Assembly: GCF_030686945.1 (NCBI RefSeq)
Contig: NW_027122708.1
Location: 5,738,248-5,802,247, forward strand
Direction: 5' to 3'
Length of the DNA: 64,000 nucleotides
Origin: Centruroides vittatus
Taxonomy: Eukaryota
Position numbers and translations under genes: made by a program. Below the pieces are notes generated by a model. It had not been told where the DNA came from. It did not search any database and saw nothing but the letters and a program-made list of their open reading frames with translations. Position 1 is the first letter of the stretch. Every line of letters begins with the position of its first letter. Below are positions 18,925-63,323 of this stretch, piece by piece.

Positions 18925-19023
18925 TTTTAAGGTAGAATTATTATTCCCAACAATCAAAAAGTTTCCATTTGTAGAAATAGTAATGCAGTTAATTGAAAAT
19001 AAATCATTCACAATTTGACCAAG
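18925..19023 (-). CDS. NACHT-WD40 gene exon, WD40 repeat (LGQIVNDLFSINCITISTNGNFLIVGNNNSTLK)
   Basis: Acceptor taaacag| and donor AAA|gtaagt. The 3' end of the gene was not found; further exons may lie below 18925. Confidence 0.55.
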
Positions 19024-19088
19024 CTGTTTAAACATAAAATCATTAATATTTTATATTATTTTATTATTTCAATAATAATTTTTCTCAC

Positions 19089-19202
19089 TTGTATTCCTTG
19101 ATTTAATGACCAATAGAATAATTCACCATTAAATGATCCAGAAATAATAATTTGATTATTTAAATCAACTGCTCGAATTGAAGATGTATGACCTTTAAGG
19201 AC
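19089..19202 (-). CDS. NACHT-WD40 gene exon, WD40 repeat (VLKGHTSSIRAVDLNNQIIISGSFNGELFYWSLNQGIQ)
   Basis: Acceptor tttttttag| and donor CAA|gtgaga. Confidence 0.6.
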
Positions 19203-19442
19203 CTAAAAAAATAATTTAAAAATTTACATTAAAAATATAATTTATATTTTTGAATCTAGCATAATTCACAAAGAAAATAAATAAATAAAATTTTTCATTA
19301 GAAAGCTTTCTGTTTATCAAATTATTAAAAACAATGATTCAATAAAATAGTTATGTTTAATAAATGATTTAAATTCTGAAATGTATGATAAATTCAAATT
19401 AAAATAAAAGACAATGTAAAGTATTTATTATTTTATACTTAC

Positions 19443-19551
19443 AGCAGTTCTAGTCATTGTTATTAAATCCCATATTTTGATTTTTTTATCCCATCCTCCA
19501 GTTACAACTAATGATTTTTCTAAGTGATGAGCAACACAATTCAAGGGTGAT
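19443..19551 (-). CDS. NACHT-WD40 gene exon, WD40 repeat (K-SPLNCVAHHLEKSLVVTGGWDKKIKIWDLITMTRTA)
   Basis: Acceptor tttttag| and donor GCT|gtaagt. Confidence 0.65.
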
Positions 19552-20741
19552 CTAAAAAATATTAAACATATTTACTGAAAATAACGTAAGAATAAATGAT
19601 TTGATTTCATAACCTTTCTTTTAAAAAATTTATTTATTTTTGAATTTTAATTTAATATAATAAACAATCTTTTTTAAATTTAAAAAATTTTTTGTCCAAC
19701 AAGAAAATTTAATGTAAAAAAAAACAAAGTAGATCCCATAAAAGATATAAGTTTAACATGATTTCACTTAGTGATGAAATGGTCTCTCTAATTTTATTGT
19801 TGATTAGTTTTGTTATATCATGTTTATTAGCATTAAATATTTGATATTCCATTACCTTGCATTGAATACTTAACTACTGTATTTCTGTAACAGCAACTAT
19901 CCAAATACAGCAGTCTCTCTATAATCTGTCACTTATCAGTCCAACATGTCCAGAAATCCAACACTGCACAGCAGTGTACATGAAATTCTCATGTTACTAC
20001 TTGTCGATGTATGCAATAGAGAGATGATGATGTCTGTGTATACTGTCAGTCACTAGTTGAATGTTGCACATGCAGTCAGCAAAACAGTCACAATCATGAT
20101 TAATACAATAAATTAATCTGTGAACTAGGTGCGTTCCTTTTACCATACAGTATATACATATAAAATCCAGTAATCCAACAATCTGTACATAATTTATGAC
20201 AAACAAACTGAGCTAAAATCCTCATAATAAATGGCTAAATGAAATCATAATTGATATAACACCATATAATATGTTCAATACACATATGTATTCAATACAA
20301 TATAAAACAATGAGAAAATTACCAGATTTAAGAATATTTTTTTAAAATATTCCAATATGTTTTAAGACAACAGCTTTCAAAGGTTTCATTACATAAAGTT
20401 TTGTCCATCATAATTCTAATGAGTCTAAAGATTCTAATCAAAATGTAATTATTACATTGAAATTTACAGTTAAAGCATTTAGGCATTTATAGTTATATTT
20501 AATTGTTACTACCTATATCAAAATGTTTTATCTATATCAAGAAATATATTGGTAGAATAAACACGTGCTTTTTGAAGCTTTTTATTTGACTGAATATACT
20601 TTATAACAGATTTTATGTTTATATCAATACTATAATACTAAACTTATTAAATTATCAATTTAATAATATAAAATAATTTAATTAAATAAATATATATATT
20701 TATTTAATTAAAAATATAAATTTTGAACTTCGGGTACATAC

Positions 20742-20891
20742 TTTATACTTGTTATTGCATTTATTTCACATCCATTTAATACATTCCAAACACGTAATGT
20801 ATTATCCCAACCAACAGATATTACAAATTTTCCACATGAACTAGAACAACAAGAACTAACACGTCGACTATGGCCTTTTAATAAATGTAAT
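20742..20891 (-). CDS. NACHT-WD40 gene exon, WD40 repeat (R-LHLLKGHSRRVSSCCSSSCGKFVISVGWDNTLRVWNVLNGCEINAITSI)
   Basis: Acceptor attacag| and donor AA|gtatgt. Phase continuous with the neighbouring exons. Confidence 0.65.
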
Positions 20892-21414
20892 CTGTAATTA
20901 TAAAAATATTAAATACTTTTAGTAAATAAATAAATATAAATACATATCTGATATAATAAAGCTTACATTGACCTCACTGACTCACTCATTAATGATATTT
21001 TTCAGTATAAGCAAACTTCTTACAAAGAAAAAATAAAATATAGGACACAATTGAAAGGAAATATTGAGCACATTACCAGAAAAATCTGAAATCTAAAAGT
21101 GTAAAATATTGTGTGTGCTATGATGCATCAAAGTTTAACACTTCATGCCTATATAAAAACAGTGTTCAAACAACTGATTTTAAGCACTTTGTCTATTTTC
21201 AAAGATGCTTATTCTGTGTATTTTTGTAGAATGACCGGCATGCCAATCTATCCAGAGGAGACCAAGAAATCAGATATTTCTGTATGGTAAAAACCAGCAT
21301 CCCTCTCTAGAGGGCACAATAAAAAAAATGAATGAATCATGTAAGGTAAAAACAAACAAGTTTTTATTCTAAACCTGTAAAACTGTCTGCATTGCATCAA
21401 AAACTATGATTATA

Positions 21415-21719
21415 CAGTAGAGCATCAATTATCCGACCCCCGATTAACCGACTTATCAGTTAACCAACTGGTTTCTAGTCGGCAAATTCAAATGTCCGCT
21501 AGTGATGTGGCGCTACAATATTTGGTTATGTCTTGGCTACTTTAATATTATTTTTGTTAAATTTTTGCATGTTTTAGCTGGCAGCACTGGCTCGACCATG
21601 AAAGGGAGGCTAGTATTTAAACCAGGCCTAATACACTACACTAATAATGTACTTTTCATACTTTCGGTTATCCGACAAACCCCAGTCCCCAATTAAGTCA
21701 AATAATTGATGCTGTACTG
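21415..21719. mobile_element. MITE (305 bp) with 23 bp TIRs (cagtagagcatcaattatccgac) and TA duplication
   Basis: The reverse complement of the 3' end is cagtacagcatcaattatttgac. TA flanks on both sides (21413-21414 and 21720-21721). No ORF. Confidence 0.6.
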
Positions 21720-60853: not shown

Positions 60854-61127
60854 TAAGTTCTGATGGGGTAAGGTAAAGTAGAATGGTAAAATGATAAACA
60901 CTTCAATAAGGTTGAAATAAAGGAAATTGTATTTAAATAAACAAAATGCCCACAGAAGCATCTACATATCTTAGTGCATGAATGAAGTACAAAAAGGGTG
61001 TGTTTGTGAAGAACTACAGTGCCACGAAGTGGAGCAAAGATACAAAACTTAAAATAAAACAACATATAAAGTAAACATTTAATATATATTTTTTTATATC
61101 AAATTTTCAAAACAATCTGATATTTAC

Positions 61128-61304
61128 CATTACTGCAGTTTTTCCATAACCAGATTTTCCAGTAATAAGGAATAAACCACTTTTACTTAAAATATTATCC
61201 ACACAATTTTTAACAAAAGAATCTCTTCCTTCAATTTGATGAAATGCTTCAGCATATGAAGTATGCAGAACTGATAATCTTTGGTCAGAATATGAAATTT
61301 CATC
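61128..61304 (-). CDS. NACHT-WD40 gene exon carrying the Walker A P-loop (DEISYSDQRLSV...SGLFLITGKSGYGKTAVM)
   Basis: Anchored to ORF 61107..61346. Acceptor tttacag| and donor ATG|gtaaat. GxxGxGKT P-loop present. Confidence 0.7.
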
Positions 61305-62775
61305 CTGTAAATATGAAAAAAAATACTGAAAAATTTTCAATTTCATTTTTGTTTCTGTAATTTTCAGATATTAAAACTTATTTCTGAATCAAAGAATATT
61401 ATAAACATTGATTTATAAAAACCAAAATAGTTGTTGTTACTGCTTAAAATCACTGAAGTTAGTATTTTTATGTTCTTTAGTATTCAATTATTATAATTTC
61501 TCTTAATTTTGTTTTAAATTCTGATTAAGTTGAAGTTATCTCTGCTAAAACTGCAATATAACATGGTTTATAATCAAAGTACTAAGCATTAAAACTGATT
61601 TTAATTTAAAATGTTACGTTTAATACACAAGTTTTTCATTAACTGAATTTTGATCACATTTAAATTTTAATCCATTTTAAAATTATAAAATATAAATTAA
61701 TTAATACTAAAACCTATTCTGTACACAATAAATTTATTATTTTATTATGGTAATTTAACTAACAGATGAAATCCTCTTATTAAACATTTCAATAAACTTC
61801 TAAAATTTATTAAAAAATTGTATTTCTTGTTTATAAGAAATATTTTAACATAAGAAATTTCAGAAAGTTTCATTCATTAATTTTCTGTGTAATCGAGTGG
61901 ATGAATTTAACATTTTCCCCATAAATTTCTTTTAACTTCCAACCACTATTGTGGACTTTAGTTTTATGGTCGAAATTTAAAAAAAAAAAGCTTAAATTTT
62001 AAATACAATTCAGTTCTATTATAAATTTGTCTATAAAATTATTTTAATATAAACAGTGTTGGAAATAATCAGTATGAGAGGAAGTAAATCAAATATAAAA
62101 GTGAAAGGTATTTATTTCATCATAAAATCTAAATAATACAAAACTCTAAATGATGGATTTTGATTTCTAAACTTTTATTATTTTTAAGTATTTCAAATTT
62201 TCTGAAAAAATACAAGACCATATTATTTATTAGAAATAATATAAATAATAAACATAATAAAATGAATCAAAATCACATCAAAATATTTTTAAAATTATTC
62301 AGGATAAAAAGTAAGTAAAAATGTCTTGAATTATAAAAATATCTTTGTTAATAAATATATTGTTTATTACATTTGTGTAACTAAAAATAAATAAAAATTA
62401 ATATCGTTTTAATAATTTAATAAACATATTCATAAAAATAATACTATACTATGTGAATTTCTAATTAACACACAAAAAAATTATAAATTCAAGTTTTTGG
62501 CCAAATTACTTAACGAACCTTTAATAGTGGAATTTATTTTTTTAAAAATAAAAAAAGTGCTTACATTTTCAACCATTCTCCAGCACAAACAGTCAAAAGA
62601 TGATTATTCACAGCATTCATCTTTTGACCAGCTTTGCCCATTTACTGTATTGGAAATGTTAGAGCACTTTTCTAAAAATCCCACTGTTAAAGGTGCATTA
62701 AGTAATTCAGAAACATTCCACAGTAACTACTACATCATCTTCAAGTTTTTATATTAATTTTCAAAATTCAATTAC

Positions 62776-62893
62776 CTTTTTATAATATTTACATAAGGAA
62801 TTCCATAAATTTTCTAGAACTCTTTGCCCAAATTCTTCTAAACCAGCAACAACTGGTTCCTCATTAACTACTCCACCCCAATAACATGGATAG
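62776..62893 (-). CDS. NACHT-WD40 gene exon (YPCYWGGVVNEEPVVAGLEEFGQRVLENLWNSLCKYYKK)
   Basis: Acceptor ttttaag| and donor AAG|gtaatt. Phase continuous with the previous exon. Confidence 0.55.
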
Positions 62894-62964
62894 CTTAAAA
62901 ATATATTAATTTCAATTGTTTTGAAAATAAAAAGTATGTTTCAATAATCACAAAAACTTCTTAC

Positions 62965-63078
62965 TTATTAAAAACTTCAAGACCACTTTCTTTAATTCTT
63001 TGTTTCAAATTCTCCATTTTAATATGATTAGATTCACTCTCTGATACAAAATTATCTTTCCATTTTTCAGGAATTTGG
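62965..63078 (-). CDS. NACHT-WD40 gene exon (QIPEKWKDNFVSESESNHIKMENLKQRIKESGLEVFN)
   Basis: Acceptor tttcag| and donor |gtaaga. Anchored to ORF 62961..63167. Its phase (+1 at the start, +2 at the end) fits the neighbouring exons. Confidence 0.5.
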
Positions 63079-63212
63079 CTGAAATAGTGTAATAAGAACA
63101 GTACTTTAAGAATGCTGTAATTGTTCCAATATTTCAAATAAATTATTTTTAAAAATAAAATACTCATAAATTATTGAATTAATTTCTTAATAATTATGTA
63201 TAATAAAATAAC

Positions 63213-63323
63213 CTTAACACATTTGTCCACCAGATTGGCAGCATTGTTTCTATTTTGCAAGATTGTGATTTCAGATTCTGTTTCAAGTACAGATATTTGT
63301 GTTTGTTGGATTTCAATGGGGTG
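63213..63323 (-). CDS. NACHT-WD40 gene, candidate first coding exon (possible ATG at 63244)
   Basis: Acceptor ttaaag|c and donor AG|gtta. The frame that is phase-compatible with the next exon reads ..KIETMLPIWWTNVL-S. An alternative frame reads HPIEIQQTQISVLETESEITILQNRNNAANLVDKCVK. Lowest-confidence exon. Confidence 0.4.

Follow-up and report, generated by a model that had tools for sequence, protein, structure and literature searches.

The window analysed here is a 64,000-nucleotide (nt) stretch of the genome of the scorpion Centruroides vittatus (contig NW_027122708.1, positions 5,738,248 to 5,802,247 of the forward strand). Its minus strand carries a large split gene, and its plus strand holds transposon remnants only. 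This gene, of which the window contains an internal 57.6-kb stretch with 19 exons, almost certainly encodes TEP1 (telomerase protein component 1), a vault-associated protein with TROVE, NACHT and WD40 domains. It is an ordinary TEP1 ortholog that is already present in RefSeq as TEP1-like, and no new immune receptor.

The exon chain and its match to TEP1

We assembled the exon chain by listing AG and GT sites, with their phases, at every open segment that looked coding. The resulting model consists of 19 minus-strand exons with a coding sequence of 2800 nt, which encodes 933 amino acids (aa) and spans 57,636 nt from 63078 down to 5443. An AG acceptor, a GT donor and a compatible phase were found at all 19 exons (38 of 38 splice sites canonical), and there were no internal stops. 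On comparison with XP_067143150.1 (P0152), a 2458-aa protein of C. vittatus (striped bark scorpion) annotated as "telomerase protein component 1-like", the spliced 933 aa were observed to match residues 950-1882 with 100% identity and 0 mismatches. This match, like those to Pfam WD40 and APAF1_C and to the PDB chain of TEP1 given below, is far stronger than chance would produce. A tblastn search of the window with XP_067143150.1 recovered all exons of the ab initio pass at about 100% identity; exon 12, which that pass had missed, was recovered only through this homolog. The window is AT-rich throughout (GC content 23-40%), and exons (29%) and introns (30%) are similar in this respect. The AT content had hinted at a cnidarian (Hydra-like) source, a reading overruled by the exact match to a C. 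vittatus protein. The 19 exons are as follows.

Exon 1, 62965..63078, minus strand: QIPEKWKDNFVSESE..., residues ~950-987 of 2458; predicted to fall at the C-terminus of the DUF4062 / NIR / TIR-like NADase domain
Exon 2, 62776..62893, minus strand: YPCYWGGV...GLEEFGQRVLENLW..., last helix of the NIR domain; 59% identity to human TEP1 over 37 aa (tblastn)
Exon 3, 61128..61304, minus strand: linker and Walker A; P-loop GKSGYGKT at 61160-61137
Exon 4, 59214..59368, minus strand: NACHT strand after the P-loop (AELCKVNQLQPVFPYFVGIDSRS...); colinear with Elysia P0001
Exon 5, 55154..55301, minus strand: Walker B LIIFIDGLD at 55237-55211; clade motif LDWLPVDLPT at 55183-55154
Exon 6, 53197..53481, minus strand: C-terminal part of the ATPase module; TEP1-clade motif PLFLHIACEELKSFGQYE
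Exon 7, 51315..51447, minus strand: start of the winged-helix region; sub-threshold HTH_NWD1 match (22.9 bits)
Exon 8, 51044..51227, minus strand: winged-helix region
Exon 9, 41722..41822, minus strand: completes the winged helix and opens the helical domain
Exon 10, 38366..38651, minus strand: APAF-1-like helical domain (HD2); Pfam APAF1_C match
Exon 11, 37754..37910, minus strand: final part of the helical domain, then the linker into the propeller (..WLTKPKIPTACYLTLSNLKQ)
Exon 12, 31902..31997, minus strand: first WD40 blade (AVISIAVSKDGRKAAFGKNDGIVQLVNSLSGK); tblastn with XP_067143150.1, 100% identity
Exon 13, 24695..24819, minus strand: WD40 blade (VIRTFTGHKEAV...SIWD)
Exon 14, 20742..20891, minus strand: WD40 blade (LLKGHSRRV...LRVWN)
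Exon 15, 19443..19551, minus strand: WD40 blade (..VVTGGWDKKIKIWD)
Exon 16, 19089..19202, minus strand: WD40 blade (VLKGHTSSIRAV...)
Exon 17, 18925..19023, minus strand: WD40 blade, the last exon of the range first proposed; GTAAGT donor
Exon 18, 8686..8821, minus strand: WD40 blade (VWSYHSGHIILKEK...), below the range first proposed
Exon 19, 5443..5555, minus strand: WD40 blade, below the range first proposed; GTAAGT donor

The initial annotation had described a gene of 17 phase-consistent minus-strand exons spanning 18925-63323. The same count was rebuilt in that range, with canonical AG/GT sites and no internal stop, and 17 of the 19 exons, from 63078-62965 to 19023-18925, lie inside it. 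The proposed extent was correct for the exons between 18925 and 63078 and too short for the gene. Position 18925 is a GTAAGT donor and no stop codon, the intron that follows it is 10.1 kb long, and two further exons (8821-8686 and 5555-5443) were identified below it in the splice-site listing and by tblastn with XP_067143150.1. Exon 19 (5555-5443) in turn reaches residue 1882 of 2458 and closes with a GTAAGT donor. Residues of XP_067143150.1 up to 949 and from 1883 onwards were encoded nowhere in the window by tblastn, and the gene therefore overhangs both window ends; the window product is about the middle third of the gene, with ~950 residues encoded upstream of the window. The introns within 18925-63323, which had been put at 1-9 kb, range from 65 nt to 9.2 kb.

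Both ATPase motifs were translated where they had been reported, the P-loop GKSGYGKT in 61128..61304 (minus-strand translation DEISYSDQ...LFLITGKSGYGKTAVM) and the Walker B motif LIIFIDGLD in 55154..55301, which is an exact exon. The stop-to-stop segment 55130-55303 contains RLIIFIDGLDQMMNNNSQDLDWLPVDLPT, and the Walker B peptide RLIIFIDGLD lies within 55154-55301. The frame starts here at 55300, and translation from 55301 runs into stops, because the first base of exon 5 completes a split codon as its third base. Exon 1 is bounded by the phase-2 acceptor tttcag|C and the donor gtaaga, and its product shows 43% identity to human TEP1 (11gz_A) by tblastn. An extended exon 1 with its start at 63114 or 63103 was ruled out: both XP_067143150.1 and its Centruroides sculpturatus counterpart XP_023230818.1 read ...FES|QIPEKW, which fits the acceptor at 63078. 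A candidate upstream exon at 63487-63612, in which LTYEML resembles the catalytic SVTEME, was rejected, as it has no usable acceptor and is absent from XP_067143150.1; a candidate exon at ~5173-5072 beyond exon 19 is likewise absent from that protein and was rejected.

Relatives of the product were sought with a profile made from an alignment of the Elysia chlorotica protein P0001 and three exact window exons. This profile was searched against a library of 1.84 billion proteins, and the best 150 of its 9737 hits were re-scored with the window protein, names being taken from a cluster look-up. Among these 150, the TEP1-like protein of C. sculpturatus, XP_023230818.1 (P0003), gave 1359 bits and 97% identity to the window protein; XP_067143150.1 falls in the same cluster. 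Over the 619-aa core of the window product, the TEP1-like protein of Tachypleus tridentatus (XP_076330930.1, P0124) showed 38.8% identity (E 1e-134, ~440-442 bits), that of Lytechinus pictus (XP_063952437.1, P0099) 32.9% (~336-338 bits), and Octopus sinensis TEP1 (XP_036357534.1, P0146) 31.6% (~253-254 bits). The NWD-like P0001 showed 25.8% identity to the core (E 2e-20), and NWD-like proteins reached ~105 bits or less. Judged by these alignments, the core sits nearer the TROVE-containing orthologs of TEP1 than the paralogous DUF4062-NACHT proteins, and the nearest available relatives of the window product are chelicerate TEP1. The invertebrate TEP1-like proteins of Tachypleus, Lytechinus and Octopus are colinear with it across the whole 619-aa core and differ by ordinary ortholog divergence, with no difference seen in architecture. 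A word-indexed protein search returned P0001, a DUF4062-NACHT protein, as its only match (30% identity, colinear across exon junctions). It returned neither XP_023230818.1 nor XP_067143150.1 despite query stretches that are 97-100% identical to them, which is an artefact of candidate selection and not an absence of relatives.

Local alignment revealed that the TEP1-clade motifs are all present in the scorpion protein. These are DLRWG, GILGERYG, S(L/V/I)TE(L/M)E, YPCxWGGV, LEEFGQxVLxxLW and the P-loop, and further LIxIDGLDQ, LDWLPxDLP, LDESPFNNQ (LDxSPFNNQ across the clade) and PLxLxxACEELRxFGxxE. The exact orthology, which the initial annotation had left open, is settled as TEP1 on the identity to XP_067143150.1, the domain content and the core similarity. 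Its placement in an NWD1 / TEP1 / APAF-1-like class was right in that the protein is a STAND ATPase whose NACHT-type module precedes WD40 repeats and that TEP1 was among the three candidates; NWD1 and APAF-1 did not hold up.

Domain architecture and alternative readings

The window product begins with the final ~77 residues of the NADase domain, followed by a NACHT-type ATPase, a winged helix, a helical domain of the APAF-1 type and WD40 repeats. Its Walker A (GKSGYGKT) and Walker B (IIFIDGLD) motifs are intact. In Pfam, WD40 was matched at 105.9 bits (E about 1e-31 to 6e-31), with ~8 blades' worth of repeats that form the first of three propellers, and APAF1_C at 34.9-38 bits against a cut-off of 22.8 (E 1.8e-9 to 1.8e-8). 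The predicted NACHT domain aligned near full length (profile positions 4-161 of 167 of PF05729) at 24.9 bits (E 2e-5), with a gathering score of 26.7, and NB-ARC, the third profile at issue, gave no match. The TEP1 ortholog clade is one of divergent NACHT proteins.

The full-length XP_067143150.1 carries TROVE, DUF5920, DUF4062 (the NIR / TIR-like NADase), the NACHT-type ATPase, the APAF-1-like helical domain and TEP1-type propellers, in this order. Pfam assigned TROVE to residues 183-571 (332.7 bits) and DUF5920 at 46 bits, both outside the window, DUF4062 to residues 815-902 (60 bits), and, beyond the window, Beta-prop_TEP1_2nd at 166 bits (cut-off 89) and Beta-prop_TEP1_C at 108 bits (cut-off 32). 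XP_076330930.1 of Tachypleus and XP_063952437.1 of Lytechinus show the same architecture, including TROVE and the TEP1 propeller models. Human TEP1 (vault protein p240; PDB 11gz) likewise has the full-length order TROVE, vWA-like DUF5920, DUF4062/NIR, NACHT, helical domain and WD40 propellers; over the final 75 residues of the NADase domain the identity is 45%, and the catalytic glutamate motif is kept. The human protein was compared directly through its PDB fragment only, and the scorpion protein has 2458 aa. Human TEP1 is slightly longer, at 2627 aa.

The N-terminus had been described initially as short, with a possible start at ATG 63244, and as fitting no known effector domain. The peptide of exons 1-2 matched residues 145-218 of 220 of PDB 11gz_A ("Telomerase protein component 1", human) with an E value of 7e-15 and 45% identity. 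By this homology, the N-terminal piece in the window is the C-terminal quarter of the TEP1 DUF4062 / NIR / TIR-like NADase domain, and ~950 residues lie upstream of it. The scorpion SLTELE aligns with the human SVTEME (E1008), the glutamate codon being outside the window. Homology to TEP1 extends upstream of 63017 and reaches the phase-2 acceptor at 63078, and 949 residues precede this point in XP_067143150.1; therefore neither ATG 63017, which was also tried as a start, nor ATG 63244 is the start of the gene. The first window exon opens at acceptor 63078, and no coding sequence could be shown in 63079-63323.

These results bear directly on whether the locus could instead be a stand-alone NWD1/NWD2-type NLR-like gene with a short N-terminus from ATG 63244 or 63017, NACHT and WD40, and without TROVE, which we consider highly improbable. 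Both ATGs are in frame, Pfam gives weak matches to HTH_NWD1 (22.9 bits) and NPHP3_N (24.3 bits), and DUF4062, NACHT and WD40 are combined in NWD1 and NWD2 too (PMC13174449). However, coding homology to TEP1 continues upstream of ATG 63017 to 63078 (QIPEKWKDNFVSESE versus human VPDAWKSDFVSESE), and a product from such an ATG would retain no more of the NADase domain than a truncated, non-catalytic fragment. In the identical RefSeq model there are 949 upstream residues, with TROVE and DUF5920 before DUF4062; TEP1 orthologs are far more similar than NWD-like proteins, and the HTH_NWD1 score lies below its cut-off of 27. The DUF4062-NACHT NLR-like proteins (Elysia P0001), together with NWD1/NWD2, share with the scorpion protein DUF4062, the NACHT-type ATPase, the winged helix, the P-loop, Walker B and WLPxDLP, and NWD1/2 additionally share the helical domain and WD40. 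The NWD-like proteins differ from it in that they are without TROVE, have DUF4062 at the extreme N-terminus, show ~26% identity and are without the TEP1-clade motifs. Human NWD1, NWD2 and NPHP3 showed no NADase activity in vitro (PMC13174449).

We likewise attach very little probability to the locus being a decaying or unexpressed TEP1 copy, that is, a pseudogene in a transposon-rich region which the annotation pipeline still modelled. Several transposon families sit in the introns, and the sister-species model XP_023230818.1 is truncated. Against this, the coding sequence of 2.8 kb in 19 exons contains neither a stop nor a frameshift and keeps all 38 splice sites canonical, the catalytic and clade-specific motifs are all intact, and amino-acid identity with the C. 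sculpturatus ortholog is 97%. The truncation of XP_023230818.1 is a prediction artefact. Residues 1138-1161 of this 1161-aa protein end in ...LSNLKQVCFSFYCFLFYF..., and the window (37753-37698) reads KQVCFTFY* there. XP_023230818.1 is a truncated prediction that reads through the exon 11 donor into the intron, and reflects neither a lesion nor a short isoform; owing to this read-through it is without all WD40 exons.

Least credible is an apoptosome scaffold of the APAF-1 type (built of CARD, NB-ARC, a helical domain and WD40, and sensing cytochrome c), for while Pfam APAF1_C is above threshold and WD40 repeats follow it, neither CARD nor NB-ARC was matched by Pfam in the window product or the full-length model, the PDB sequence search finds TEP1 but no APAF-1, CED-4 or Dark chain, and the helical domain is common to TEP1, NWD1, NWD2 and NPHP3 (PMC13174449). 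What the scorpion protein shares with APAF-1 is the STAND logic of an effector domain, an oligomerising ATPase, a helical domain and an autoinhibitory WD40 sensor, together with the helical-domain Pfam match; the effector and the ATPase of APAF-1 are CARD and NB-ARC.

Some observations weigh against the identification as TEP1 and its functional extension. The NACHT match and those to NPHP3_N (24.3 against 24.8 bits) and HTH_NWD1 (22.9 against 27) are all just below their gathering thresholds. TROVE, the catalytic glutamate and the C-terminal propellers lie outside the window and are attributed to this gene through the identical protein model. XP_067143150.1 is itself a computed model, such that its agreement with our exon chain is not independent proof of every junction, and the chain is a prediction. 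NADase activity, vault association and RNA binding are known for mammalian TEP1 only, and would extend to the scorpion protein by analogy.

Beyond correct annotation, the significance of the locus as TEP1 is small: what appeared to be an orphan NACHT-WD40 immune receptor is the TEP1 core. It illustrates how the edges of a window can give a large multidomain gene the look of a smaller, novel one. The catalytic motif is intact in a complete chelicerate TEP1, which may be of use for comparative vault biology.

Proposed mechanism and possible microbial relatives

In human TEP1, the DUF4062 domain, renamed NIR or TIR-like, actively hydrolyses NAD(P)+ and relies on E1008 to do so, and the NIR / TIR-like domain adjoins a NACHT ATPase in TEP1, NWD1, NWD2, NPHP3 and TTC41 (PMC13174449; bioRxiv 10.64898/2026.09.04.749371; both 2026 preprints). 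By analogy with the human protein described there, scorpion TEP1 would reside inside vault particles with a small RNA bound through TROVE. Its STAND module (NACHT, helical domain and WD40) may act as an oligomerisation switch that gathers the TIR-like domains, which would then split NAD+ or NADP+ into ADP-ribose (phosphate) and nicotinamide. If human TEP1 is a guide, hydrolysis would depend on concentration or oligomerisation, the vault particles would be shared with PARP4, and TROVE would bind vault RNA. The authors of PMC13174449 offer the speculation that an unknown signal is picked up by the WD40 domains, leading to NACHT oligomerisation and to the TIR-like domain being activated. The decayed transposons that fill the long AT-rich introns are passengers outside this mechanism.

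Bacterial NIR proteins have already been linked to TEP1, in general terms, in the literature. In our comparison, MCX9011172.1 (P0118), a 1407-aa protein from a metagenome-assembled genome (MAG) of Candidatus Methanoperedens sp. (62-kb contig), has a TROVE-less DUF4062-NACHT-APAF1_C-WD40 arrangement. Its identity to the scorpion TEP1 core is 30% over 619 aa (250 bits), which makes it as close as octopus TEP1 and much closer than the animal NWD-like paralogs are. The TEP1-clade motifs YPCAYGG, LEAFGQRVLEDLW and PLYLAVACEELRVFG are present in MCX9011172.1 and absent from those paralogs. This protein may represent a near relative, in prokaryotes, of the STAND module of TEP1, or else a contaminant introduced by binning. 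It would not be unreasonable to propose that scorpion TEP1 is a catalytically competent NLR-like NADase switch whose NIR-NACHT-helical-WD40 module descends rather directly from a prokaryotic defence protein, a proposal that we regard as tentative and, on balance, doubtful. Prokaryotic descent is read here from one MAG protein, MCX9011172.1, and one comparison.

A further microbial sequence, P0116 (JGI metagenome, 2145 aa), nearly fills its 6578-nt contig and encodes an apparently intronless TROVE...NIR-NACHT-WD40 protein. It has TROVE at 200 bits, Beta-prop_TEP1_2nd at 341 bits and 30.6% identity to the scorpion core. On these matches, P0116 is a TEP1-like gene of a microbe, protist or prokaryote.

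Introns, transposons and repeats

The initial annotation had pointed out that the introns host almost every transposable element in the window. This is true and at the same time trivial, since the whole window lies inside the gene and every such element is therefore intronic. No match to Rfam was found in the window. The elements recognised are as follows.

3522-3136 (profile 2-102) and 950-132 (profile 106-184), minus strand: reverse transcriptase RVT_1 in two halves (Pfam)
2050-2394, plus strand: gag-like CCHC zinc-knuckle open reading frame, between the RVT_1 halves
12048-12290, plus strand: Mos1 / mariner HTH_48 fragment in intron 17 (Pfam, 29 bits, above cut-off)
26830-29151, plus strand: hAT transposase remnant in intron 12, in several open reading frames, with DUF4371 at 27198-28304 and the hAT dimerisation region at 28864-29151; scores just below the Pfam cut-offs

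A weak GIY-YIG match at 331-2 (minus strand) suggests that the split RVT_1 reading frame belongs to a Penelope-like element. Its two halves are separated by ~2.2 kb bounded by inverted repeats of ~400 nt (913-1313 and 2751-3152) that are 97-98% complementary, and either a nested insertion or an inversion could account for this stretch. GIY-YIG-like open reading frame fragments recur at 59975-60208 and 37212-37571.

Intron 17 also contains a 449-nt inverted repeat, 14736-15184 and 15412-15860, with arms that are 94% complementary and 227 nt apart. Near-identical open reading frames (GPHLHRTDKTLLGSKITG...) read outward on both strands of this repeat, which suggests a head-to-head pair of an unclassified repeat. 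Several repeat families recur from intron to intron. Two dispersed families were observed with copies in different introns of the gene, at 48578-48757 and 54215-54394 (83% identity) and at 30371-30542 and 44400-44571 (87% identity).

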